From NCBI GenBank assembly GCA_964621305.1, contig CAZUOM010000005.1:18647-82646 (forward strand): a stretch of 64,000 bases of DNA. The letters are read 5' to 3'. Position 1 is the stretch's first letter; the number at the start of each line of letters is the position of its first letter. This stretch comes from an uncultured Gammaproteobacteria bacterium (GTDB lineage Bacteria; Patescibacteriota; Microgenomatia; UBA10105; UBA927). Both the position numbers and the translations under genes were made by a program. Shown here one piece after another: positions 4,111-49,796 of the stretch. A model generated the notes under the pieces. That model did no database searches, was not told where the DNA came from, and worked only from the letters and a program-made list of their open reading frames with translations.

Positions 4111-6391
4111 TATTAACTATTTTGTTTTCCGCCTGATAAACAGTTTCTCTTACGTGATCTACGGCATCCGGGTTTACCGAGACGCTTGTGATGCCCCAAC
4201 TGACAAGTTTTTCAACGAGCTCCGGATAATCTGACGGCGCTTGCCCGCAGATAGAGCTAGTAACTGCGCGTTTGGCACAGGTTTTGATAGTACGTTCAAA
4301 CGCCCACAGGACTGCATCATCAACTTCGTAAAAGTCTTTGGCTACCTCGCTATTGTCTCGATCCGTGCCCAGTATGAGCATGGTTAAATCATTGGAGCCA
4401 ATGGAAACACCATCAATCCCGATGTCAAGGTATTTTTCAATCAAAATGGCATTTGTCGGGACTTCGACCATCATCCACAAACGAAATGTTGATGAGCGAC
4501 AGAGCCCGGATCCTGTGACGATTTTCTTAACCTCCAAAAGTTCTCTGGGCGAACGCACAAATGGTATCATCAAAGAAAGATTCTTCAGTCCGTGCTTGTT
4601 GCGAACCGCTTTGATTGCTTCCAGCTCCAACTCAAACACCCGAGGATCGGCAATATAGCGCGCCGCACCGCGGTACCCGAGCATGGGGTTTTCTTCTTTA
4701 GGTTCGTACTTTTCCCCACCTTTGAGGTCTCGGAACTCATTGGTGCGAAAGTCGCTGGCCCGGTACACAACCGGCCGGGGATGAAACGCCTCACAAATCG
4801 TAGTCATCCCGGAAGATAAACGGTTGATAAAAAATACTTCTTTCCTTTCGTCGATAAGTTTCCTTGGGTGGGTACCTATTTGAGCCATCATAAACTCCGC
4901 GCGTAAGAGCCCCACGCCATCTACATTCATTTTTGCCACTTCTTTTGCACGATCCGGTTGAGCCAGGTTGACGTAGACATGGGTAGCGGTTTTTAAGTTC
5001 TTCCTGAAAACACCTTTGGCGATTGGGTTTTGGGTTCCACCTTCTCTTTTCACAACTCCTCGATATATCTCCCCCATCGATCCATTGACCGTTATTACCA
5101 AACCGTCTTTGAGCAGTTTCCTTGCTCCAGTTGCGCCAACGACACACGGGATACCCAGTTCCCTAGAGACGATGGCCGCATGAGACGTTCTACCTCCCTG
5201 TTCTGTGACAATTGCAACGACCTTCCTCATAACGGGAACATAATCCGGGTTGGTCATTTCTGCTACCAATACGCTGCCAAATTTTACTCTGTGCAGTTGG
5301 TTGGGAGACGAAAGTTGAGCCACCGGTCCGCTGCCAATACCCGGACTTGCCGCATCGCCCTTCAGCAGCAAAGCTGCTTCAGGGTAAACCCTCTGTGTTG
5401 CTTGCCCTGAACCCCGTTCTGCGGGGTGAAGGGTTGTTATCGGCCTCGTCTGCACTAAATATATCTTTTTTTTCTCAATGGCCCATTCGGCGTCCTGAGG
5501 AAAAAAATAGTGATGTTCCAATTTTTTGGCCAATACGGCAAGCTCAAGAATCTCCGCATCGGTCAATTTCTGCTTACTTCCCAGTGTTTTTGTTATCCTG
5601 GTTTCCACGTTTTTACTACCCTTTCGCGCGAGCATCAAATCCTGCGTGCGGGTCTGTTTAACTAAGATCGTTAACTTCTTTTTATCTACTTCATAGTGAT
5701 CAGGCGTCACGGCGCCCTGGACGATCATTTCTCCGAGTCCGTAAATTGCTTCAATGACAATTTTTGATTTATCGTTAGTTACCGGATCGATCGTAAACAT
5801 GATACCTGATTTCTCCGACTCAACCATTTTTTGTACTGGAACGGCAATACCAACCTTAAAGTGATCAAAATTGTTCGTTGCTCTGTAAAATATCGCTCGT
5901 GCAGTAAAAAGCGACGCCCAGCACTCCTTTACTTTTTCAATGAGGTTAGCTTCACCCTCTACGTTGAGAAACGTCGCCTGCTGGCCGGCAAATGACGCAT
6001 TCGGTAAGTCCTCAGCGGTCGCTGATGAGCGTACGGCAACGAGGGGATGTTTAAAGACACCGTCGCCGCCAAGTTTAAAGTAGACTCGAATTATTTCTTG
6101 TGCGATCGATTTAGGAAATTCGAAGCGCGTGATAAAATGCTGGATATTTTTTGAAGCTTTCTCAAGGGCTTTACTATCGCTTACCTCTAATCCTTCTAGT
6201 TCCTTCTTAATCCTCTTTTCTAGCTGGTTATGATTTAGGAAATCCTGGTAAGCCTTTACAGTTACGATAAAACCAGGAGGCACTGGGAATCCGGCCTTTG
6301 TCATCTCGCCAAGATTTGCTCCCTTTCCGCCGACGATATCTACGTCTTCGCGATCAACCTCATTAAACCAAACAACATACTTTGCGGGCAT
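4094..6391 (-). CDS. ppsA: phosphoenolpyruvate synthase (pyruvate, water dikinase)
   Basis: 765 aa; N-terminal GGKGANLGEM ATP-grasp motif, central phosphohistidine domain (GGRTSHAAIVSRELGIP) and C-terminal PEP-utilising domain; length fits PEP synthase rather than PPDK. Confidence 0.8.
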   Translation of the reverse strand: MPAKYVVWFNEVDREDVDIVGGKGANLGEMTKAGFPVPPGFIVTVKAYQDFLNHNQLEKRIKKELEGLEVSDSKALEKASKNIQHFITRFEFPKSIAQEIIRVYFKLGGDGVFKHPLVAVRSSATAEDLPNASFAGQQATFLNVEGEANLIEKVKECWASLFTARAIFYRATNNFDHFKVGIAVPVQKMVESEKSGIMFTIDPVTNDKSKIVIEAIYGLGEMIVQGAVTPDHYEVDKKKLTILVKQTRTQDLMLARKGSKNVETRITKTLGSKQKLTDAEILELAVLAKKLEHHYFFPQDAEWAIEKKKIYLVQTRPITTLHPAERGSGQATQRVYPEAALLLKGDAASPGIGSGPVAQLSSPNQLHRVKFGSVLVAEMTNPDYVPVMRKVVAIVTEQGGRTSHAAIVSRELGIPCVVGATGARKLLKDGLVITVNGSMGEIYRGVVKREGGTQNPIAKGVFRKNLKTATHVYVNLAQPDRAKEVAKMNVDGVGLLRAEFMMAQIGTHPRKLIDERKEVFFINRLSSGMTTICEAFHPRPVVYRASDFRTNEFRDLKGGEKYEPKEENPMLGYRGAARYIADPRVFELELEAIKAVRNKHGLKNLSLMIPFVRSPRELLEVKKIVTGSGLCRSSTFRLWMMVEVPTNAILIEKYLDIGIDGVSIGSNDLTMLILGTDRDNSEVAKDFYEVDDAVLWAFERTIKTCAKRAVTSSICGQAPSDYPELVEKLVSWGITSVSVNPDAVDHVRETVYQAENKIVNKVIKL

Positions 6392-11623: not shown

Positions 11624-12925
11624 TCATTTTACTCCTGCAAAGGCAATACGGTCTAGAATCTGTTGCGCCGTTCCCAACACGCGTCCAGAAACAATCGTTC
11701 CGTCTCCCCAGCGATCGGCAATTTGGTCAATAGCCTGAGTTAGTAATCTTTTCCTTCGTTCTTCAACAAATAAACTTTCCTGCTGGTACAAACTTTTTTG
11801 GAGATTAAAACTGCTTATTGCTAAGATTCGAACCGGTTTGGCCGGCGCAGTCATTAGAATCGCTTTAGCACGTTTATAGAAATCAGCGTCCGCATAAAAC
11901 GCAGTTGTCGACTTTTCTCCGTGATTCCAATATGTATGATCGGCAAATAAACAGGACGCGCGAACTCCCGATGCTACAAATCCCCCGTCCCGCAGGCGTT
12001 TGCCCATTTTTGCCACGAGTTGGGCAAGGATTTTATGCAGTTCATTCTGGGTTGGCAAGTAAGGCTTCCCCAAGGCGTAGGACTGACCAAAGCTCTTCTG
12101 CTCGGCTTCAATTTCCCATGAAGGGTATCCATGAAGTCTAAGCCACCACAAATAGCCCGTGACTGCTCGAAACGCGCGCTTGAGCGCAACGGGTGAGGCT
12201 CGATAAAAATCAAGCGGAGTCTTTATTCCGGCTGACCGCAGCCGCAGACTGTTACCTTCCTTAATGCCACACAGATCAACAAGTTCGAGCTTGCCCAGAA
12301 CTTCTTCGATATTCTCTTTTGTAATCACGTCAAATCCATCGGGTTTATGAAGTCCGCTAGCAACCTTGGCCAGATACCTATTCGGCGCAATGCCAATAGA
12401 GACTGTAAGCCACTCACCGATTTCTTCTTTAATCCGTTGTTTTATTTCCCGTGCAGTATTTGTCATTTGGCATTTGTCATTTGGCATTTTAAGCACTATT
12501 TCATCTATCGATTCAACGGAAAAATTCGGCGTGTATGAAGAAAGGAGTTCCACGAGCTTACGGTTCACAAATCGATATTTTTCCGGATCAGGAGGTAAAA
12601 CGATAAGATTGGGAAAAATTTGCTTGCCCTCCCATACGCGCATGCTGGTCTTGATACCAAGTTTTTTGGCCTCTCGCGAGGCAGCCAAAATGCACCCGTT
12701 TGACTGGACATAGGCTGCAACAGCCACTGGTTTGCCGCGCAGAAGCGGGTTTGCCTGCTGCTCAACGGAAGCAAAGCAGGAGTTAAGGTCGATATGCATG
12801 ATGGTGGGAGGAGCTGAAGAAAAATTGTTATATTGTTTCATTGTTAAATTGTTACAAAGTTTTTCTTTCAACAATGTAGCAATGTAGCCATGTAACCATT
12901 CTCTAAACAGTCGAGTCAATCTCAA
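11624..12925 (-). CDS. dinB: DNA polymerase IV (Y-family translesion polymerase, DinB)
   Basis: longest ORF 433 aa; the conserved start of the Y-family polymerase domain is MHIDLNSCFASVEQ (ATG at 12796..12798), so the true start is probably 12798 or 12840 rather than 12925. Confidence 0.8.
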   Translation of the reverse strand: MRLTRLFREWLHGYIATLLKEKLCNNLTMKQYNNFSSAPPTIMHIDLNSCFASVEQQANPLLRGKPVAVAAYVQSNGCILAASREAKKLGIKTSMRVWEGKQIFPNLIVLPPDPEKYRFVNRKLVELLSSYTPNFSVESIDEIVLKMPNDKCQMTNTAREIKQRIKEEIGEWLTVSIGIAPNRYLAKVASGLHKPDGFDVITKENIEEVLGKLELVDLCGIKEGNSLRLRSAGIKTPLDFYRASPVALKRAFRAVTGYLWWLRLHGYPSWEIEAEQKSFGQSYALGKPYLPTQNELHKILAQLVAKMGKRLRDGGFVASGVRASCLFADHTYWNHGEKSTTAFYADADFYKRAKAILMTAPAKPVRILAISSFNLQKSLYQQESLFVEERRKRLLTQAIDQIADRWGDGTIVSGRVLGTAQQILDRIAFAGVK

Positions 12926-21625: not shown

Positions 21626-21835
21626 ACCGATAAAATCCAGTAAAGACATGCCCCGTGGGGGAAGGACAAGAATATCAACGTCACTTTCCTCCTGCCAAAA
21701 TTGTCCGCGCGAGAGATCCAAAAAAAGCCGCTTTTACCACACCGTACCGCCGCATGATGGGTGTAAGGATATCCGAATACTGTTTGAGTTGCGTCGTCAT
21801 ACTGTTATTCTACCGATTCTTAATACATGCCGCTT

Positions 21836-22492
21836 TCATGCGGACGCGGATTTCTCTTCTAAAAATTTTTTCCCGTGGCCAATTTTGATATTAATTGGTC
21901 TACCAGCTTTACACAGAGGACAGACCGCCGCATCAAATGCTTCGGCTTTCAGGACGCCGAGAGCAGAAAATGGCGCGCCGACCAAATCTGCGTTGACATG
22001 CTCTGGATCTCGGTTGACCATAACACAAACGGCTACAACGGTACCGCCTGCAGTGCGCACGGCGTCCACGACTTTCTTTACCGACATGCCAGTCGTCGTG
22101 AGATCTTCAATGACTAATACGTTCTTTCCGGGGATAAGCTTGTCATAGCCACGTCGAAATGATTGCTCGCTTTCGACTGCTGAGGCTAGCGTCCCTTTAT
22201 CTTTCTCAGTATAAGCGCTCAGTATTTCTTTCTTTTTCAGCTCGGAAAGGTGATAGGCTACCCACTGTGAAAGAATCGTTCCACCTACGGCTGGCGCAAC
22301 CACTACATCAATTTTCTTGTTTTTAAATTTTTCGGCAAACATTTTCCCTGCCTTTGACGTTTCACCAGTGTGGGGGTAGAGCGCGTCTTTATTGATGTAG
22401 ACGCTCCCATGTTTTCCCGACGTATAGACAAAATGATCATCCACAAGTACCGCTCCTATCTTTTTGAGAATTTGAATAATGCCTTTGTTCAT
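21836..22492 (-). CDS. pyrE: orotate phosphoribosyltransferase
   Basis: 218 aa; type-I PRTase PRPP-binding motif VLVIEDLTTTGMS; adjacent to pyrF. Confidence 0.8.
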   Translation of the reverse strand: MNKGIIQILKKIGAVLVDDHFVYTSGKHGSVYINKDALYPHTGETSKAGKMFAEKFKNKKIDVVVAPAVGGTILSQWVAYHLSELKKKEILSAYTEKDKGTLASAVESEQSFRRGYDKLIPGKNVLVIEDLTTTGMSVKKVVDAVRTAGGTVVAVCVMVNRDPEHVNADLVGAPFSALGVLKAEAFDAAVCPLCKAGRPINIKIGHGKKFLEEKSASA

Positions 22493-37502: not shown

Positions 37503-38234
37503 TCAGTGCTCTTTATGCATTGCCAAGAGCAAAAACACTGCTGTCAACATCGAAAATACCAAAGCCTGGATAAATCCTACAAACAATTCTAACCCGAGAA
37601 ACGGAATCGGCGCAATGAGAGGAATCAGAAACGCGATAACCGTAAGGAGCACCTCTCCGGCAAAAACATTGCCGAAGAGACGAAACGCGAATGAGATTAT
37701 CCTGGAAAACTCACTAACTAGCTCCAAAACGCCGACAAAAAAACCCATTGGACTTTTGAAGTTAAAAAATTTGCCCAAATACGTCAACCCGTGGCTTCTG
37801 AGCCCCGTCCATTGAACGACCACTATGACAATAACAGCCAAGGCAATCGTCATGTTGAGGTCTGCCGTGCCGGAGCGAAATAAAGGGATAAATGCTTCGT
37901 GGCCGTCTTTGACTTCATTAAATCCAATAGTTCCCACGCCAGGAACTAGCCCGGCCCAGTTGAGGGAGGCGATAAATAAAAATAGAGTAGCCAGAAGAGG
38001 AAAAAATTGTTTAGTTTTTTCGTGGAGGACGCTTCTAAAAAGCGACTCAATGCCGCCTACTAATATTTCTGCGACCGACTGACCACCACCTGGAACCAAA
38101 GATAGTCTACGGGTGGCGGCAATGGCTAGAAGAGTTACAAGAGCCATTACAAACCAGGTTGTCAGAATAGAGTTGGTTATGGCAAACCCTCCGACAGAGA
38201 AAATAGTCTCGGCAGCAAGCGAAATATGAAGCAT
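37503..38234 (-). CDS. atpB: F1Fo ATP synthase a subunit
   Basis: 243 aa; conserved arginine helix FAFRLFGNVFAGEVLL. Confidence 0.9.
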   Translation of the reverse strand: MLHISLAAETIFSVGGFAITNSILTTWFVMALVTLLAIAATRRLSLVPGGGQSVAEILVGGIESLFRSVLHEKTKQFFPLLATLFLFIASLNWAGLVPGVGTIGFNEVKDGHEAFIPLFRSGTADLNMTIALAVIVIVVVQWTGLRSHGLTYLGKFFNFKSPMGFFVGVLELVSEFSRIISFAFRLFGNVFAGEVLLTVIAFLIPLIAPIPFLGLELFVGFIQALVFSMLTAVFLLLAMHKEH

Positions 38235-38246
38235 GAGTTCAAATAA

Positions 38247-38468
38247 CTAATCCAAATCCTTTATAATAGTATACAAACTTACAACAGAAATCGCTAGCCC
38301 CAAGAGCAGCAATACGAGCGTTACCTTCGGCGAAGTTCCCAAAGCACTATCAATCAGGCTCCCGATAAAGGCTCCAGCCACCAACGGCACAACAACCGCA
38401 TACCCCAGACTTCCGATAAGCCCCCACCCGATCCATTGTTTCATATTATCAAATTTTGGTTTAACCAT
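38247..38468 (-). CDS. small membrane protein of the ATP-synthase operon (AtpZ/AtpI-like)
   Basis: 73 aa; two TM helices; immediately upstream of atpB. Confidence 0.5.
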   Translation of the reverse strand: MVKPKFDNMKQWIGWGLIGSLGYAVVVPLVAGAFIGSLIDSALGTSPKVTLVLLLLGLAISVVSLYTIIKDLD

Positions 38469-38567
38469 GAAAGTATTTTACTTCTTACTGAAGGGAGAGT
38501 AAATGAAAAATAAGCAAAAATAAGCAAAAACCTCCTAGATTGACAATAGAATTTTTACGAGCTAAAT

Positions 38568-39056
38568 TTGGTAATAATGAAAAAGACAACTGCGTTAATT
38601 ATTAGAGATGAACTTAAAAAAGCCAAACTTACCGGCCTTCCTAAAAAATTTGATGGTTTATCCAAAAGAGTCGATGGTTTATCCAAAAGAGTCGATGGTT
38701 TATCCAAAAGAGTCGATGGTTTGTCCAAAAGAGTCGATGGTTTGTCCAAAAGATTTGATGGTTTATCCAAAAGAGTCGATGGTTTGTCGAAAAGAGTCGA
38801 TGACATATCGAATCGAATGGACCAAGTAAACGACGCCGCTCGAATCATTCAGGAAAACGAGCAGAACCTGAAGGACTTAGGCGGACTCAAACGCCGACTC
38901 GACGTCTTGGACAAAATATTTGTTAGGGTCGACAAAATTGCCGGTGAAGTGACTAAATATCGAGAGGAGCAAGAACTCAACAGTAAAGCGCTATCCAATC
39001 ATGACTACCGCCTGGAACGAATTGAAAAACACCTCAACTTGGCTGTAACCAGCTAG
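38568..39056 (+). CDS. coiled-coil protein built around eight tandem heptad repeats (VDGLSKR)
   Basis: 162 aa; only plus-strand gene in the region; internal 21-bp x8 tandem DNA repeat; charged helical N- and C-terminal flanks; stop overlaps dnaE stop convergently. Confidence 0.5.
   Translation: MVIMKKTTALIIRDELKKAKLTGLPKKFDGLSKRVDGLSKRVDGLSKRVDGLSKRVDGLSKRFDGLSKRVDGLSKRVDDISNRMDQVNDAARIIQENEQNLKDLGGLKRRLDVLDKIFVRVDKIAGEVTKYREEQELNSKALSNHDYRLERIEKHLNLAVTS
38646..38813. repeat. 21-bp tandem repeat x8 (consensus gtcgatggtttRtccaaaaga)
   Basis: directly visible; in-frame (21 = 7 codons) within the 38568..39056 ORF; units differ at 1-2 positions. Confidence 0.9.
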
Positions 39057-42000
39057 TCACTTTCGATCCTTTTTGCATCATCGACCAAAATGGTAAGGCG
39101 GTCGTCCTTCTCGTCGACGCGGCCGGATACAAGAACTATTGCATCGCGGCTCCAGAGGTCGCTCGTTTTGGCAAATATTTTGGGGAATACGACTAATTCG
39201 ATGACTCCTCCTAAATCCTCGATGCGCACAAAAGCCATTTCGCTGTTGCCGGCTTTGGTAAGGATTTTCTTCACATTTGTAACCATGCCGCAGACAGTCA
39301 CGCGGCTGCCGACAGAATCCTGGTTAACGTCAGCGAGCGAAACAATCGGAGTTGCGCTGTCAACTGAAATTCGTGTCAGGACCGTCGCAAGGGGGTGCTC
39401 GGTGAGATAGTAACCGAGAAGCTCTTTTTCGTAGGACAGAAGCACCTGCTTGGGCAGTTCGGCTACAGCCGGAAGCGCATCCACCAGCTGATCCGAACCA
39501 TTTTCATCTGTGTCGAACAGACCAACTTGACCCCAGGCAACAGCCTTTCTTACCCGGTGGGCTTCCTCAAGAATAACAAGAAGTGCTTCCAACAGTTGTG
39601 CGCGGCTGCCGAATACATCCATGGCGCCCGCTTTAATAAGGCTCTCAAGAGTCTTTCTGTTTACTTTAGACAAATCAACTCGCCTTATAAAATCAGTAAG
39701 TGATTTAAACGACCCTCCGGCTGAATGAGCCGAAAGGATGCTTTCAATCGCGGCAGTTCCAACATTTTTGATTGCAGATAGACCAAAACGGATTTTCCCC
39801 CCTTCTATTGTAAATTCTACATTCGAAGCATTAACGTCTGGTGGCAAAAGCACTATCCCAATTCGTCGGCACTCCTCAACTGCACGGGCTATTTTTTCAT
39901 CGCGCGCCGGCCCTGTGGTTCCACGAGATTCAGCTGTCAGGACAGCGGTCATATATTCGACGGGGAAATTGGCTTTTAGGTACGCAGTCTGATAGGCAAT
40001 CATCGCGTAACAAGCTGCATGCGCTTTATTAAATCCGTAACCGGCAAACGGCTCGATTAAGTGAAAAATTTCTTCAGCTTTTGTTTTATTTATCCCATTT
40101 TTGACACAACCTTCAATAAACTTCTCTTTTTGCTTTTTCATTTCAGACGGAATTTTTTTACCAACTGCTTTCCTTAGCTTATCTGCATCACCCCACGAGT
40201 AACCCGCAAGCGTAATAGCCGTTAAAAGCACATCGTCTTGATAACAAATGATTCCGTATGATTGCTTGAGGACGTCTTTTAGTCGCGGATCCGGATAAGT
40301 AATATGCTTGGGATCGTGTTTTCTCCTGATAAATTCCGGAATAACTTGCATCGGCCCGGGCCGAAACAAAGCTACCATTGCCATAAGATCAAAAACAGTC
40401 GTCGGCTTGAGCTCTTTGACGTAGCGGCGCATGCCTGTCGATTCCAGCTGAAATATGCCTGTGGTTTCGCCAAGCGATAGAAGTTCAAAAGTCTTTTTAT
40501 CGTCAAGAGCTATTTTTGACAAATCAATTTCAGTCTTGTGAACAACTTTAATGAATTTTAGCGCTTGTGAAAGGATCGTGAGGTTCCTTAGCCCCAAAAA
40601 ATCCATTTTAAGTAGCCCAACCCCGTCCTCACCGACTGTGTACATGTCATACTGAGTTACAATTTTTTCGCCACGAGTTTCTTTCTGAAGTGGCGTGTAT
40701 TCTACTAGTGGTTTATCAGCAATTACTACTCCTGCAGCGTGCACCGATGCGTGACGGGCAACCCCTTCAAGTTTCCTAGCTACATCCAAAAGTTTTTTGG
40801 TTTCCGGTTCATTTTTATAAGCGCTAGCAAGATCCGGTGACTGCTCAAGCGCTTTATCAATTGTCATTGGTGCACCCTGATAGCCTGGGGGGATCATTTT
40901 AGCAATCCTGTCTGGCGCCGCGTACAGCATACCTAGCGCCCGGCCCGCGTCCCGCACAGATCCGCGCGCCTCCATCGTACCGAAGGTGACGATTTGAGCT
41001 ACCTTATCGTCACCATACCGGGCAGTCACATAGGCTATGACTTCATCCCGCCGATCGTCGGCAAAATCTAGATCGATATCAGGCGGACTAGGCCGCTGGG
41101 GGTTGAGAAAGCGCTCAAACGGAAGCTTAAAGTAAAACGGGTCGATACCCGTAATCCCCAGTGAATACGAAACAACCGACCCTGCCGCCGATCCTCGACC
41201 CGGACCAACTGCTATCCCGCGACTTCTGGCCCAATTGACGAAATCTGCAACAATCAAAAAATACGTCGCGTATCCCTTGGTCTTGATGATGTCTAGCTCA
41301 TACGTTATGCGCTCCTTGATGGCTTGGGTAATATCTCCATACCGCTGCGGAGACCGCTCCCAAACCAGTTTTTCTAAATATTCTGCAGGACTATCTTCAC
41401 CCTTCGGAAGGGGAAAATGCGGCAGGATCCAGTTTCCGATAGCCAATTTAATATCGCACATATCAGCAATCCGTTTCGTATTTTCGATTGCATCAGGATA
41501 CTGGATAAAGAGACCGCGCATTTCCTCTGGAGAACGCATGTAAAAATCCGGAGAGTCGATCATTGACAAGGGTCGGTTTTTCTCGATGATCGTGTGCTGG
41601 GTCTGCACGCAAAGAAGAATTTCCTGAGCCTCGGCGTCATCAGGGTCAACGTAATGAATGTCGTTGGTAGCCACAATCGGCAAACCAAGTTTTTTTGCAA
41701 GAACCACAAGCTTTTCATTGACCATATCGCAGTCAGGAATCTTTGGGTGTTTTTGAAGCTCCAGATAATAGTGCTGGGGCCCAAAAAGCTCCGCGTACTG
41801 TTTGGCAACGGTTTGGGCTTCTTCATCCTGATTGTTTCGCAAAAGTGAAGGTACTTGGCCGTTGAGGCAGGCAGACAGGCAGATTAAGTCATCGTGATAT
41901 TTTTGCAATAGTTCCCAGTCGATCCTGGGTTTGTAGTAGTACCCCTCCAAATGCGCGTGAGTAACCAACTTCATCAAATTTTTGTAACCGTTTTCGTTTT

Positions 42001-42280
42001 TGGCAAGTAAAACCAGGTGAAAGGGGTCAACGTCGACTTTGGCCTCTTTATCAAAGCGCGATCTTTTGGCTACATAAGTCTCAACGCCAATAATCGGCTT
42101 GATGCCTGCTGCTTTTGCCTTAAGGTAAAACTTAAAACTCCCGTACATCGCCCCGTGGTCGGTTAAAGCCAATGCATCCATCCCAAAGCTCTTTGCCCGC
42201 TCAATAAGGTGATCCAGCTTCCCCAACCCATCCAGAAGCGAGTACTCGCTATGAACATGAAGATGCACAAAATCGGACAT
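39053..42280 (-). CDS. dnaE: DNA polymerase III alpha subunit
   Basis: 1075 aa; N-terminal PHP domain [18 protein letters not shown], polymerase core and OB-fold C-terminus. Confidence 0.95.
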   Translation of the reverse strand: MSDFVHLHVHSEYSLLDGLGKLDHLIERAKSFGMDALALTDHGAMYGSFKFYLKAKAAGIKPIIGVETYVAKRSRFDKEAKVDVDPFHLVLLAKNENGYKNLMKLVTHAHLEGYYYKPRIDWELLQKYHDDLICLSACLNGQVPSLLRNNQDEEAQTVAKQYAELFGPQHYYLELQKHPKIPDCDMVNEKLVVLAKKLGLPIVATNDIHYVDPDDAEAQEILLCVQTQHTIIEKNRPLSMIDSPDFYMRSPEEMRGLFIQYPDAIENTKRIADMCDIKLAIGNWILPHFPLPKGEDSPAEYLEKLVWERSPQRYGDITQAIKERITYELDIIKTKGYATYFLIVADFVNWARSRGIAVGPGRGSAAGSVVSYSLGITGIDPFYFKLPFERFLNPQRPSPPDIDLDFADDRRDEVIAYVTARYGDDKVAQIVTFGTMEARGSVRDAGRALGMLYAAPDRIAKMIPPGYQGAPMTIDKALEQSPDLASAYKNEPETKKLLDVARKLEGVARHASVHAAGVVIADKPLVEYTPLQKETRGEKIVTQYDMYTVGEDGVGLLKMDFLGLRNLTILSQALKFIKVVHKTEIDLSKIALDDKKTFELLSLGETTGIFQLESTGMRRYVKELKPTTVFDLMAMVALFRPGPMQVIPEFIRRKHDPKHITYPDPRLKDVLKQSYGIICYQDDVLLTAITLAGYSWGDADKLRKAVGKKIPSEMKKQKEKFIEGCVKNGINKTKAEEIFHLIEPFAGYGFNKAHAACYAMIAYQTAYLKANFPVEYMTAVLTAESRGTTGPARDEKIARAVEECRRIGIVLLPPDVNASNVEFTIEGGKIRFGLSAIKNVGTAAIESILSAHSAGGSFKSLTDFIRRVDLSKVNRKTLESLIKAGAMDVFGSRAQLLEALLVILEEAHRVRKAVAWGQVGLFDTDENGSDQLVDALPAVAELPKQVLLSYEKELLGYYLTEHPLATVLTRISVDSATPIVSLADVNQDSVGSRVTVCGMVTNVKKILTKAGNSEMAFVRIEDLGGVIELVVFPKIFAKTSDLWSRDAIVLVSGRVDEKDDRLTILVDDAKRIESD
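42206..42280. repeat. direct repeat copy A (= first 25 codons of dnaE)
   Basis: 75 nt; ~91% identical to 43027..43101; all 7 differences are synonymous third-codon positions. Confidence 0.85.
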
Positions 42281-42288
42281 GAGGGAAT

Positions 42289-42675
42289 TTATGTTAGCTT
42301 TTCAATCTTTTCCTTTATTAGTCGAGCACTGCCAAATGCTTCGCTGATTTCTGCCTTGCTATATTGAGGTATATCAGGCGGATATCTAGATTCAATATAG
42401 AAACCGGTCAAAAGTTCGCATGCATCTCTAAGCTCTTCAAGAACTGCGTTTATTCTTACACATTCATTTAATAATAATGGTAATTCATGCACCCGAGGCG
42501 GTTCAACGCCGTGAAACACAAGGAATCCCTTTAAGAATTTTTCGGCGACCTGCTGGGAAAGAAAACATATTTGTGGATATATTTGTTCCTCTTTTAGTCC
42601 AACCTCCGCATAACGGTAATCAGAAATCGCGGAATCAAACCATTCTTTTGCTAATTTTTTTTTATGATCGTCCAT
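42289..42675 (-). CDS. HEPN-domain protein (toxin component of a HEPN/MNT pair)
   Basis: 128 aa; AEKFLKGFLVFHGVEPPRVHELPLL and YIESRYPPD match the HEPN (PF05168-type) core; overlaps the upstream MNT gene by 14 nt. Confidence 0.75.
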   Translation of the reverse strand: MDDHKKKLAKEWFDSAISDYRYAEVGLKEEQIYPQICFLSQQVAEKFLKGFLVFHGVEPPRVHELPLLLNECVRINAVLEELRDACELLTGFYIESRYPPDIPQYSKAEISEAFGSARLIKEKIEKLT

Positions 42676-42988
42676 AGAGCATAGTCCCTTCGGATAGTAT
42701 TCGGATAATAAAATAGTCGCCTAATGATATTCTTTTTTCTAATTCATCAGGAGTATACACGAGAGCATCCAGTGGATACCTGCGCTCCATCCCCCGAAGC
42801 GATGCGAACACTTCTTTAGTACGAAATGGTCTTCTCTTGTCGCTCTTTTTAATAATTAAAAGATCGATATCAGAATCATTGTGAATTTCTCCTCGAGCAA
42901 GGGAACCAAAAAGAATTACCTTATCCGGTTTATAACTATCGACGATCTTTTGAACCAATTGTTTCGCCTCCTCTTGAATATCATTCAT
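42662..42988 (-). CDS. minimal nucleotidyltransferase (MNT) domain protein
   Basis: 108 aa; [22 protein letters not shown] = GS-x9-DxD nucleotidyltransferase motif. Confidence 0.8.
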
Positions 42989-43108: not shown

Positions 43109-43930
43109 CTAGCGAGACGTATTTCTAGGCATCATTTCAAGGTCGGGTTTCCAAGAAGTAAGTTTTACCCGAGTGTCTTTTTGCGCTTTAGAATGAGACA
43201 TTGCTATTTCCGCTTGGTTAAATAGTTCGTTTGTTTTAATCGGTTCGTCTGGCCCGTCATAAAAGCTTATTCCAACACTTAACCCAATCTCTCTCATCCC
43301 TGGTACCTGATCAAAACTCTCCATTGCTTTTTCGATTCTTTGAATAAATTGATAAATAGTAATAGGTTTTGGGACATTTAATAGCGTTATTCCAAATTCG
43401 TCTCCAGAAAATCTACCTACTACATCATAGGGTCGTTTAGCAGCGTCGAATATATTTCCCATAGTTTTAATTACTTCGTCCCCCGCCTCGTGGCCCAAAA
43501 CGTCATTTACTTTAGTTTTGAAATGATCAAAATCAATATATAGGAAATAGACATTGCCGCCTTGTCTTTTTGCAAGATTAATCATACGCTGAGTAGATCT
43601 TGCCATCGATTCCTTATTTGGCAGACCAGTTAAAGGATCTTTACCAGATTTTATTTTTTCTCTCATTGAATCCCCAACATTGTGCCGCAATTGACTCACA
43701 ATCGAATTGATAGACTGTTTCACATGGACTCGAGCAAGAACGCCCGGCAAAAGATCGTTCCATTTCGCACGGTATGCCTCAAGCAGCATGTGATGGTAAG
43801 GGTCTTCTAATTCACCATGTATCGAATAAGTCAACTGTTCGCGGAGCCGTTTCTGCATGTCATTTGGTATTCTTCTAAAATCTGCTCTAGCAAAAATTAT
43901 TTTATCATCGCCTGTTATTTCTGCTGACAT
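43109..43930 (-). CDS. GGDEF-domain diguanylate cyclase-like protein (SGDEF variant) with ~100-aa uncharacterised N-terminal domain
   Basis: 273 aa; DPLTGLPNK...[25 protein letters not shown]...RFSGDEFGI are the conserved GGDEF-domain blocks; A-site reads SGDEF. Confidence 0.75.
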
Positions 43931-43934
43931 AGTG

Positions 43935-45263
43935 TCATAAAAGAAAATTTTTTAACTTCTTCAAGGACAATTCTGCTTGCGCCGTCGGAAGAAGTTTTTT
44001 TATTTGACCAACCAGGAAAAACATCGCCTGCTGTTTTCCCTTTTTATAATCTTCTACCGCTTTTGGATTTTCGGAAAGGACTTGTTTGATAATTTTTTCC
44101 AGTTTCTCATCTGAGACACTCGACCCGGCACCAGATTGTTGAGCAATTTGCGCAAGCAACTCTTCTGGCGAAACCGTCGCTATATCTATTTTTTTATTTA
44201 TTATCCAATTCGCAATTGTTTTCGGGCTTGTTTTTTTGTTAATGGCGGCTTTTTCAAAGTAATCTGCACGCTCTCGCGTCTCCGTAAGAAGAGCCGCATC
44301 ATATTGACTTAGGTTATATTGCTTCATAAACCGCTCTTCTTTTGCCTCCGGCAATTCTCCAATTTGGGATTTGAGATTTGTGATTTGGGATTTCTCCCAT
44401 GTTATGGGAGGGATGTCCGGTTCAGGAAAATACCGGTAGTCATGGGCTTCTTCTTTCTCCCGTTGAGCCTGCGTAATTCCTTTGGATTCGACAAACCCCC
44501 GCGTCTGCTGCGTCGGCCTTTCGCCGCGTTCCAACATCTCAGTCTGGCGTTCAACCTCAAATTCAATCGCTTTTCTTGCAAATTTAAACGAGTTAATGTT
44601 TTTGATTTCCACTCTGTAATTTGGATATTGGATATTGGTAGTATCGGATATTGGTAGTATTGAGACACTGGGCTCGATTCGCATGCTACCCTTCTCCATA
44701 TCTGCATCGGAAATACCCAGATACCGAATGATTCTCTGGAGTTTTTTGAGAAATATATGAACGTCTTCCGATGAACGGAAATCCGGCTCGGTAACAATCT
44801 CAACCAACGGTACGCCGCTTCGGTTAAAATCAATCAAGCTTACTCGCTCGCCGTTTACTCCTGCATGCTGCAGCTTCCCGGTGTCTTCCTCCAAATGTAC
44901 CCGCCTAATGCGTATGTTATTAAACGATCCGTTAACGCAAAACGGAGCGTCATATTGAGATATTTGATAGCCTTTTGGAAGATCAGGATAAAAATAGTGC
45001 TTGCGGTCAAATTTACTCTCTAATGGGATTTTGCAATCCAGAGCCAAGCCAAGAAGGACAGTCCATTCAACTGCTTTCCTGTTAGGTACAGGCAAAGATC
45101 CCGGCAATCCCAGACAGACTGGGCACGTAATCGTATTTGGCTCTCTGCCAAAATGATCCGCCGGGCAGCCGCAAAACATTTTGCTTTTTGTCGCAAGCTC
45201 CACATGGACCTCAAGGCCGATAATTGGTTGGTATGTCATAATGTTGGCCGTCTTGTATTCCAC
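43935..45263 (-). CDS. gatB: Asp-tRNA(Asn)/Glu-tRNA(Gln) amidotransferase subunit B
   Basis: 442 aa; N-terminal YQPIIGLEVHVELATKSKMFCGC and zinc-ligand cysteines; followed by gatA/gatC. Confidence 0.9.
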   Translation of the reverse strand: MEYKTANIMTYQPIIGLEVHVELATKSKMFCGCPADHFGREPNTITCPVCLGLPGSLPVPNRKAVEWTVLLGLALDCKIPLESKFDRKHYFYPDLPKGYQISQYDAPFCVNGSFNNIRIRRVHLEEDTGKLQHAGVNGERVSLIDFNRSGVPLVEIVTEPDFRSSEDVHIFLKKLQRIIRYLGISDADMEKGSMRIEPSVSILPISDTTNIQYPNYRVEIKNINSFKFARKAIEFEVERQTEMLERGERPTQQTRGFVESKGITQAQREKEEAHDYRYFPEPDIPPITWEKSQITNLKSQIGELPEAKEERFMKQYNLSQYDAALLTETRERADYFEKAAINKKTSPKTIANWIINKKIDIATVSPEELLAQIAQQSGAGSSVSDEKLEKIIKQVLSENPKAVEDYKKGKQQAMFFLVGQIKKLLPTAQAELSLKKLKNFLL

Positions 45264-48287: not shown

Positions 48288-49796
48288 TTACAATATTCTC
48301 CTGCCTGTTAGTAGTTTACGCACTTCCAACATAGCTGAATACGTAGGCAATATGTAAAGAGTTTCTGATTTTGGAGTTTGTCTTAGACACCGGTTTATTG
48401 CTTTCTTTAAGTCTTCTTCAATTTGAAATTTGAAATTTGAAATTTGAAATTTTGAGGGATTTGAGTATTTTATTCTCAATCCCATATCCCAACATCGATC
48501 TCCCGATATTACCATTATCGTTTTTTCCGCGATCATCTCAAAATCCACATCCCAGATCCAGCTAACGTCTCGCCCATCCGGAATACGATCGTTGAGGACA
48601 AACAAAATATTTTTAGCGCCCAGTTGGAGAACTGTTCGTAACGATTCATTAAATCCGGCAGGATTTTTTGAGAGAAATATCTTCACCTTTCGACCATCAA
48701 TCTCAAATTCTTCCTGGCGGCCAAAGGCAGGAGAAAAGCCCCTAAGCGCATGCTTAATTTTCTGATCGGCAATGCCTAATGACTTTGCTGTCGCGACAGT
48801 CGCAAGGGTATTGTAACGATTATAGAAGCCTGGCAATGGATACTCCCACGTCGAAATATCCGGTTTTGGTCGTATGTTTTTACACCTGGCGCAGCGCCAG
48901 TCGCCTATGTGAGAATAATAAACGCCCTTGTACGTTAACCGTGTACCGCATCGCGGACAAAACGTTGAATCAGTTGCATGCTCGAGCTTTTCGACAAACT
49001 GCGCCGGATCATCGAGACCAAAGAATATGACCCTTTTTGTCATCGCGATCCGCCAGCTGGCGGAGTGGCGATCTCGGACTTGATTTGAGATTGCTTCGCC
49101 ATGAGAATGGTCTCGCAATGACAAAGGCCGTGCTATCTCAGCAATCTGCGGATCATCGGCATTGGCAATTACCTGAATACTAGGGCCGAGCCTCGAGCGA
49201 TCCCGAGTCTTTGCGAGGGAGAAGCGATCGGCTCGTCCTGAGGAGTCCTGAGCTTGCGAGGGACGACGAAGGGCTCTCTCCCATTTCTCCGCGATCACAT
49301 CCACCTCTCCATACCGATCCAACTGATCCCGAAAAAGATTAAGTAAGACAACAACAACTTTTTGTTTGTTGTCATTGCGAGGAGTCTTCGACGAAGCAAT
49401 CTTCTGTTTAATTGAGATCGCTTCGCCGTCAGAACGGTCTCGCGATGACAAGTTAGCCAGTACTCCCGGAAGGGAGTTTTCGTCTACCTCAAACACTCCC
49501 CATTCCCCCGGCGGACTCGTAATGATGGCAGAAACGATACCGTTAAGAAGGTTTGCGCCGCTTGAATTGTGAACGACACTTTGTCCGTCTTTCTCAAGAA
49601 TTGTTTTTATCATGAAAGCTGTCGTTGTTTTTCCGTTTGTTCCGGCAACCAAGATGATATTTTTAGGTGTTATTTTAGATAAAATATCGGGGTCAATCCG
49701 CAACGCAATTTCCCCCGGCCAAGTTGCTCCAGCGCCGAGGTTGAGTAGTTTAATTAGCAATGAAACAATTTTTCCGAGAAAGACGGGAAAAATCAT
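48288..49796 (-). CDS. murT: lipid II isoglutaminyl synthase, Mur-ligase-like subunit MurT (with internal in-frame insertions)
   Basis: 502 aa; ILVAGTNGKTTTAFMI P-loop, conserved LNLFRDQLDRYGE block, Cys4 zinc ribbon CPRCGTRL...CARCKN; several low-complexity in-frame insertions coincide with palindromic DNA elements. Confidence 0.8.
   Translation of the reverse strand: MIFPVFLGKIVSLLIKLLNLGAGATWPGEIALRIDPDILSKITPKNIILVAGTNGKTTTAFMIKTILEKDGQSVVHNSSGANLLNGIVSAIITSPPGEWGVFEVDENSLPGVLANLSSRDRSDGEAISIKQKIASSKTPRNDNKQKVVVVLLNLFRDQLDRYGEVDVIAEKWERALRRPSQAQDSSGRADRFSLAKTRDRSRLGPSIQVIANADDPQIAEIARPLSLRDHSHGEAISNQVRDRHSASWRIAMTKRVIFFGLDDPAQFVEKLEHATDSTFCPRCGTRLTYKGVYYSHIGDWRCARCKNIRPKPDISTWEYPLPGFYNRYNTLATVATAKSLGIADQKIKHALRGFSPAFGRQEEFEIDGRKVKIFLSKNPAGFNESLRTVLQLGAKNILFVLNDRIPDGRDVSWIWDVDFEMIAEKTIMVISGDRCWDMGLRIKYSNPSKFQISNFKFQIEEDLKKAINRCLRQTPKSETLYILPTYSAMLEVRKLLTGRRIL
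49028..49113. mobile_element. MITE-like palindromic element with 12-bp terminal inverted repeats (TGTCATCGCGAT...CTCGCAATGACA), in-frame inside murT
   Basis: termini are reverse complements; interior is an inverted pair of a ~38-nt unit (gagattgcttcgcc...ggtctcgcaatgaca). Confidence 0.5.
49370..49450. mobile_element. second MITE-like palindromic element with 12-bp TIRs (TGTCATTGCGAG...CTCGCGATGACA), 81 nt = 27 codons, in-frame inside murT
   Basis: same TIR family as 49028..49113; a third degenerate copy of the unit lies between them at ~49190..49290. Confidence 0.5.

Follow-up and report, generated by a model that had tools for sequence, protein, structure and literature searches.

A short plus-strand reading frame lies between the atp operon and dnaE in the window analysed here (the whole 64-kb stretch of DNA, from an uncultured Gottesmanbacteria-like bacterium), and at its core is a tandem array of 21-bp units, each encoding one heptad of a predicted coiled coil. 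The locus raises the question of whether this frame is a gene at all and, if it is, whether the array serves as a contingency device, as an earlier note on this DNA had proposed, or records a length change of another kind. The features discussed below are collected in Table 1.

Table 1. Positions in the window of the coiled-coil gene, its parts and its neighbours.
Feature	Position	Strand	Basis
AtpZ/ATPase_gene1-like ORF, first gene of the divergent atp operon	38247-38468	-	Pfam PF09527, E = 6e-12
Predicted sigma-70-like promoter: -35 TTGACA (38540-38545), 17-nt spacer, -10 TAAATT (38563-38568)	38540-38568	+	consensus scan
Antisense ORF, 97 aa, repeating STLLDKP	38555-38848	-	confined to the repeat, stops short of the conserved domain
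CDS of the 159-aa predicted coiled-coil protein, from ATG 38577; stop TAG 39054-39056	38577-39056	+	ORF list, homologues, pN/pS
N-terminal basic segment: predicted short helix (residues 5-15), then L-x-G-L-P-K-K break	38577-38648	+	AlphaFold; motif MKKTTAQIVRDELKKAKL
Seven near-identical 21-bp units encoding (V/F)DGLSKR	38649-38795	+	TRF and unit-by-unit listing
Eighth, diverged unit VDDISNR	38796-38816	+	unit listing; 15/21 nt match (manual count)
Conserved C-terminal domain, residues 81-159, 18 invariant residues	38817-39053	+	alignment A1
C-terminal superfamily module, residues 105-159	38889-39053	+	hhalign, representative search
dnaE, convergent	39053-42280	-	gene order, ORF list

The plus-strand gene and its start

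In the ORF list the frame runs on the plus strand from a TTG at 38568 to 39056, and this whole span had been taken as the gene. That the frame is a genuine gene is well supported. A search of 5.8 billion clustered proteins returned about 30 homologues of 89-131 aa, several of them named Candidatus Gottesmanbacteria, with E-values between the window protein and family members ranging from 1e-49 to 1e-25. The closest relative, P0002, is 64% identical and carries four heptads (pS 0.83, pN 0.10). For the C-terminal domain, comparison of the window gene with nine relatives gave pN values of 0.10-0.24 against pS values of 0.8-1.1, at which synonymous sites are saturated, indicating strong purifying selection in the plus frame. 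The same protein search found an identical product (P0001) on NCBI contig SBBN01000014.1 of GCA_005239695.1. The TTG start did not hold up: because the homologues begin MKKTT and the TTG falls within the predicted -10 hexamer, the true start is almost certainly the ATG at 38577, which gives a product of 159 aa.

We also considered the alternative that the plus-strand frame is not the gene and that either the antisense ORF codes, a case raised in the earlier note, or the repeat region is non-coding. An antisense ORF of 97 aa is indeed present, but it is confined to the repeat, whereas the conserved sequence of the locus lies beyond it and is under strong purifying selection in the plus frame, and a non-coding reading is countered by an Rfam scan over 38200-39300 that returned no match. 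We give this alternative practically no credence and reject it, as both conservation and selection fit the plus frame. The antisense ORF is a by-product of the repeat without gene status, and as such would not be able to occur in homologues that lack the expansion.

The setting of the gene largely agrees with what had been described. It is divergent from the atp operon, the upstream minus-strand order being the AtpZ-like ORF, then atpB and the remaining atp genes, and at its other end it overlaps the dnaE stop, with both stop codons sharing the CTAG at 39053-39056. The claim that it is the only plus-strand gene of the region is roughly right for about 14.7-53 kb, where there is one other long plus-strand ORF (21648-22148); this has no family match and overlaps a real minus-strand phosphoribosyltransferase gene. 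Directly downstream of dnaE is a toxin-antitoxin-like HEPN and nucleotidyltransferase pair (42289-42675 and 42662-42988, minus strand), followed by a GGDEF-domain gene at 43109-43930.

The 21-bp array

Tandem Repeats Finder (TRF) places the array at 38652-38802 and scores it at 260 (7.2 copies, 93% matches, no indels), compared to 66 for the next-best tandem repeat in the whole 64-kb window. Read in frame, the near-identical units run FDGLSKR, VDGLSKR four times, FDGLSKR and VDGLSKR (five V and two F), so the earlier count of eight copies is fair when taken as seven near-identical units plus one diverged unit. The only variable sites among the seven are the GTC/TTT first codon and two synonymous third positions. 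Three of the seven units were scored as identical to another unit, the others differing at 1-3 nt, and the identical pairs are units 2 and 3 and units 4 and 5. As ordered, the unit variants (F/V codon, TTA/TTG, TCC/TCG) make every three-unit window unique. The diverged VDDISNR unit represents the ancestral heptad, which is found in most subfamily members as VD-x-(L/I)S-x-(R/K). It had further been pointed out that copy number could change here without a frameshift, and this is correct: one 21-bp unit makes up one heptad, so that units can be added or removed with both the reading frame and the coiled-coil register preserved. The copy number in the window rests on one metagenome-assembled genome, and an array of about 150 bp of near-identical units carries a risk of miscounting by short-read assemblers.

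Other short arrays were seen in this lineage. Three heptanucleotide arrays of 4.6-4.7 copies, which share a CAAAT core on the coding strand, are found in the window at 12458-12489, 44362-44393 and 48420-48452. Each lies within a different, unrelated minus-strand gene (one is gatB-like), and the encoded peptides are KCQMTN, KSQITNLKSQI and KFQISNFKFQI. A perfect heptanucleotide array, AGCTATC repeated 10.9 times, is present on another Gottesmanbacteria contig (L020, 5478-5553). Long arrays of a heptad very similar to that of the window gene (RVDGL-S/T-x-RVD...) also occur in two longer, unrelated proteins, P0032 (Microbispora sp., 214 aa) and P0035 (193 aa). These were matched through the repeat only and probably reflect convergent use of a VDGLxxR coiled-coil unit.

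Stalk length across the family

To place the array in the context of its family, we measured the linker, which joins the N-terminal motif to the C-terminal domain, in the 25 proteins of subfamily A. Eleven proteins have a linker of 11 aa, six of 18 aa, four of 25 aa and two of 39 aa, and that of the window protein is 67 aa; the one exception is a protein with 9 aa, so that 24 of the 25 fit the heptad classes. The five classes are all 4 mod 7, and in units of the heptad VD-x-LS-x-(R/K) they amount to 0, 1, 2, 4 and 8 extra copies. As far as the aligned proteins go, linker length is clearly quantised in heptads across the relatives, and the window expansion is thus the extreme of a whole-heptad length change that runs through the family.

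Tandem duplication is found elsewhere in the family and at various ages. A 21-bp array in L013 has 3.9 copies with 77% matched, and further duplications comprise 51 bp x 2.8 (84%), 51 bp x 2 (95%) and 33 bp x 2 (84%). P0057 has a 9-aa unit in four copies, and P0052, P0055 and P0060 have a duplicated NEQNL motif. These duplications arose independently. A second subfamily has duplicated a unit of 17 aa (51 bp), present two to three times; since this is not a multiple of seven, preservation of register is no rule for the family as a whole. By comparison of divergence, the window expansion is evidently recent and the youngest in the family: synonymous sites between the window gene and its relatives are saturated whereas the units are 0-3 nt apart, which places the expansion after the split from every sampled relative.

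Predicted protein architecture

AlphaFold, run with the family alignment, modelled the protein as nearly all helix (mean pLDDT 86), in keeping with the earlier prediction of a helical coiled coil that includes both termini. The model has a helix at residues 5-15, a break at G-L-P, a continuous helix from 24 to 140 and a further one at 142-153; pLDDT is 90-97 in the long helix and 94-97 in the repeat, although AlphaFold tends toward helix over-prediction on periodic sequence. The same architecture was predicted for a 103-aa relative without extra heptads, with helices at 5-15 and 19-96. In every unit heptad position a is V or F and position d is L or I, and the best heptad register stays constant for all 28-residue windows starting at residues 1-80, then changes near the invariant ENEQNLKDLGGLK motif. 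Stable coiled coils do not usually carry a glycine in each heptad. We infer that the protein would be a homo-oligomeric coiled coil.

Family members share an N-terminal MKKTTAQIVRDELKK helix, and subfamily-A homologues carry the N-terminal motif MKKTTAQIVRDELKKAKL, whose version in the window is MKKTTALIIRDELKKAKL. The C-terminal domain of about 75 residues follows the invariant pattern N-E-Q-N-L..L-G.L-K..L...D.I....D..A-G...Q...R...E and includes the family-specific motif ENEQNLKDLGGLK at 38853-38891. The 18 invariant columns of alignment A1 all lie within this domain, and the window protein carries every one of them. With a pI of ~10.4 the N-terminal and repeat segments are basic; the C-terminal domain is close to neutral. 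We found no hydrophobic or membrane segment in the window protein (maximum 19-residue Kyte-Doolittle mean 0.56), and its sequence has no cysteine, lipobox or signal-peptide-like N-terminus. The family proteins are probably cytoplasmic.

The family and a wider superfamily

The family, whose members are 95-160 aa long, is narrow, undescribed and apparently restricted to Gottesmanbacteria. An exhaustive profile search of 1.84 billion representatives yielded only 103 clusters when the threshold was E < 1e-3 and 23 when it was E < 1e-10; their lengths lie between 41 and 170 aa, with the lone exception of P0129, a 601-aa repeat protein. The distant matches share only the last ~55 residues, with the pattern ..LPTKDEF..MDK..GE.K..REEQ......H.DRIE.LE.., and hhalign of A1 against A3 gave a probability of 99.5% over 55 columns. 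Proteins of this wider superfamily resemble the window protein in that they are of similar size, all helical and stand-alone, without conserved neighbours, and they differ from it in lacking the ENEQNLKDLGGLK motif and the MKKTTAQIVRDELKK N-terminus. All are annotated as 'hypothetical protein' and have no Pfam domain.

Searches of Pfam, NCBIfam and PHROGs with the protein, 30 family members and 10 distant relatives gave generic coiled-coil matches, mostly on the repeat. Only one of these, MbeD/MobD (PF04899), exceeded a curated cut-off, with 32.8 bits, yet it aligns residues 33-57 with profile positions 44-69 inside the repeat, is matched by only one of the 30 family members and has no mobilisation genes nearby, and we rejected it. 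Profile searches of the PDB with A1 and A3 returned nothing below E = 0.01. Foldseek of the AlphaFold model against the PDB also gave no match (best E = 1.9), although a fold search is uninformative here because the model is a single long helix.

A conserved promoter and a putative leaderless start

Because its predicted -10 hexamer ends only 8 nt before the ATG, the gene would be transcribed from its own predicted promoter into an mRNA that is leaderless or nearly so. This type of start is not special to the coiled-coil gene, as several other window genes have -10-like boxes 5-10 nt upstream. Among the 57 long window ORFs, about 8 have a GGAG, GAGG or AGGA motif 3-12 nt upstream, and about 14 have a TAnnnT box 5-10 nt from the start, which suggests that the organism makes little use of Shine-Dalgarno sequences and frequent use of leaderless starts.

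In most relatives the upstream sequence reads TTGAC-N7-TTTTCACGCAG-TAnAGT, 6-9 nt upstream of the ATG. The family promoter is a sigma-70-like -35/-10 pair with a 17-nt spacer, and the 3' part of the spacer is itself conserved. The predicted window promoter, probably homologous to it, retains both hexamers, their 17-nt separation and, at 8 nt, the short distance to the ATG, and differs at 5 of the 17 conserved spacer/-10 positions (manual count); a search of the window with the family motif at up to three mismatches gave no match. Among the 42 loci searched, the motif was found only upstream of family genes (L002, L006, L011, L013-L015, L017, L018, L022, L023, L026, L027, L031, L033, L038 and L040), including the L014 paralogue described below. 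A second promoter type, TTGACA ... TGGTATAGT, is found on another branch (L019, L020, L021, L037 and L039). The family promoter is more conserved than the coding DNA. The conserved block in its spacer could function as an operator or represent an extended promoter element of an unusual kind. A LexA-like or palindromic operator in this block was considered and discarded: no inverted repeat is conserved, and a TTTTCA/TGAAAA pairing with the start region is missing from members whose N-termini differ.

Promoter-like sites for the atp operon and for the coiled-coil gene both lie in the 108 bp of the window that separate these divergent transcription units (38469-38576). The two -35 hexamers overlap on a near-palindrome, ATTGACAA, at 38539-38546, and a 10-bp repeat, AAAAATAAGC, is present in 2.5 copies at 38506-38530. 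The ATG of the atpZ-like gene likewise lies only ~6 nt from a -10-like box.

Genomic context of relatives

The position next to atp and dnaE is not conserved in the neighbourhoods that we examined, those of P0003, P0005, P0006, P0008, P0026, P0028 and L023. P0003 and the closest relative, P0002, adjoin a TsaB-like gene and a CAP-domain gene; P0005 is surrounded by glycosyltransferases; P0006 follows a trigger factor gene and a DUF5660 gene; P0008 overlaps the start of ruvC-ruvA-ruvB; and P0026 and P0028 are found in yet other gene neighbourhoods. Two wider-superfamily members likewise lack a conserved neighbourhood. Since the neighbourhoods of the relatives differ, guilt by association fails, and the linkage of the coiled-coil gene to atp and dnaE is incidental. 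A link to ATP synthase, such as an IF1-like inhibitor helix, had been suggested by adjacency and was dropped because that adjacency is not conserved.

The sole operon-like association seen is at L011, where the family gene (5001-5336) overlaps the start of ruvC (5333-5818) by 4 nt and would be co-transcribed with ruvC-ruvA-ruvB. L014 holds a shorter paralogue of about 82-85 aa at 4632-4889 on the plus strand, 1.4 kb from the first copy and with its promoter at 4597-4631; it lacks the ENEQNLKDLGGLK motif and consists of the C-terminal superfamily module only, and a metallo-beta-lactamase-type gene of 448 aa lies between the two copies. The gene and its promoter are also present together in several TPA metagenome-assembled genomes (L013-L017 and L022) whose title reads 'uncultured Gammaproteobacteria bacterium', a label that is probably wrong.

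Discussion

We favour, with a probability of about 0.6, the reading that the gene encodes a small, lineage-restricted coiled-coil protein in which a recent, slippage-type heptad amplification has lengthened the stalk in register. The protein would have four parts: a short basic N-terminal helix, a break (L-P-x-K), a very long heptad helix and a conserved stretch of ~75 residues that would be the functional core. A pre-existing stalk heptad (VD-x-LS-x-R) would have been amplified to seven extra near-identical 21-bp copies, likely through slipped-strand mispairing or unequal recombination, and this would have been tolerated because the stalk is extended without loss of frame or register and both the basic N-terminal helix and the C-terminal core stay intact. 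By standard helix geometry the predicted rod would grow by ~1 nm per unit and reach ~8 nm beyond the shortest relatives. We infer that the expansion is a tolerated and possibly neutral length change, not a programmed switch. As for function, our guess is an oligomeric coiled-coil adaptor or spacer, in which the invariant polar motif (ENEQNLKDLGGLK...D..I....D..AG) would serve as the binding site for a partner, with the stalk determining how far that site lies from the basic N-terminal helix.

For a contingency locus, copy number would have to vary among strains or among members of one population. If the gene were such a locus, the 21-bp array would be hypermutable, stalk-length alleles would coexist within the population and selection would use the variation, for example as a tunable ruler or spacer, or in evasion of something that recognises the protein. 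Seven near-identical in-frame units are a suitable substrate for slippage, and the family repeatedly gains tandem duplications in the same N-terminal half; however, the exact protein is found on two NCBI contigs only, and neither a second strain nor a length variant was found among the 5.8 billion clustered proteins, in the genome scan or in JGI metagenomes. Copy number does differ between relatives in whole heptads, but these other length classes are separated by saturated synonymous divergence, a pattern equally compatible with rare events spread over long periods and with rapid switching. Furthermore, classical contingency genes mostly encode surface-exposed products and this protein looks cytoplasmic, so that despite the precedents of NeuO (PMC3046976) and Borrelia bdrT (PMC3303823) we consider this reading unlikely. 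Somewhat further down the scale is the possibility that the array is real and its assembled length wrong, through collapse or inflation of the array during short-read assembly, which would make the count of eight biologically meaningless. The contig is metagenome-assembled and the near-identical part, at 147 bp with its two pairs of identical units, is about one short read long; on the other hand, the ordered variants distinguish each three-unit window, an identical 162-aa product is encoded on two NCBI contigs, and relatives with 4-5 heptads indicate that multi-unit arrays do occur in the family. We regard a miscount as distinctly unlikely.

The earlier suggestion of a variable surface or phage-related protein found no support. 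A secreted, surface or phage-derived coiled coil, whether an adhesin stalk, an Lpp-like tether, or a tape-measure-like or spanin-like protein, would account for the weak generic matches to LPP, NPV_P10, tape-measure and spanin PHROGs and MbeD_MobD, but these all fall on the repeat and occur in only 1-4 of the 30 family members. No PHROG was consistent across the family, the best shared one matching 6 of the 30 members at E = 0.002 and the window-specific matches lying within the repeat. Signal peptide, lipobox, cysteine and membrane segment are all lacking, the neighbours are housekeeping genes, and 2.9 million viral contigs contained no relative, which together make such an origin highly improbable. 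The most ambitious reading of the locus would make the family a set of self-promoted, leaderless Gottesmanbacteria 'molecular rulers', with stalk length under diversifying or tuning selection, the array an active hypermutable minisatellite and TTTTCACGCAG the operator of a dedicated regulator; we treat this as a long shot.

The tolerated in-register amplification that we favour is of a kind already known, namely in-frame repeat-length variation in helical proteins. The Bdr proteins of Borrelia are likewise a small, helical, paralogous family with no assigned function, in which the in-frame repeat number varies between paralogues and strains. Their repeat unit is a different one, they are anchored in the membrane at the C-terminus and their genes lie on plasmids or prophages, whereas the window protein has no anchor and is chromosomal, and we detected no sequence relationship between the two. 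The bdrT orthologues of Borrelia strains B31 and N40 are 99.4% identical and differ in having about 9 and about 6 repeats, respectively; despite such strain differences, bdr repeats are stable in culture (PMC3303823). A second comparison is NeuO, the O-acetyltransferase of the E. coli K1 prophage CUS-3. The poly-psi DNA unit of NeuO is 7 nt, so that its array also switches the gene on and off by frameshift; the window array, with its 21-bp unit, could not act in this way, its heptads are predicted to be helical and no catalytic domain is attached. NeuO activity scales with the number of RLKTQDS heptads (PMC3046976).

The comparison with Braun lipoprotein (Lpp) is functional only: the window protein is predicted to be a short, all-helical coiled coil as Lpp is, and its length in heptads may likewise correspond to a physical distance. 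Lpp carries a signal peptide and a lipobox cysteine and is attached to peptidoglycan through a C-terminal lysine. The window protein lacks these defining features and contains no cysteine at all, and a direct assignment to Lpp (PF04728/PRK15396) was rejected, as the weak Pfam LPP match (E = 2e-5; 25.2 bits) lies below the cut-off of 29.1 and the protein has neither a cysteine nor a hydrophobic N-terminus. Engineered longer Lpp variants widen the periplasm, indicating that Lpp length sets distance (PMC5736177, PMC8824477). Natural length variation of the kind seen in the window family is not a known feature of Lpp.

The analysis documents an undescribed small-protein family and a wider superfamily, corrects the start codon and does away with the connections that had been proposed with the atp operon, dnaE, phage and the cell surface. 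Within one orthologous family it provides a natural example of coiled-coil length evolving by whole heptads (0, 1, 2, 4 and 8 extra), in a lineage of the candidate phyla radiation where most small proteins are unannotated. If the ruler reading were true, the population would sample rod lengths in 1-nm steps, which might, for example, match a cell-envelope or division structure. Should the array prove polymorphic within populations, the family would represent a rare case of a cytoplasmic rod of tunable length.
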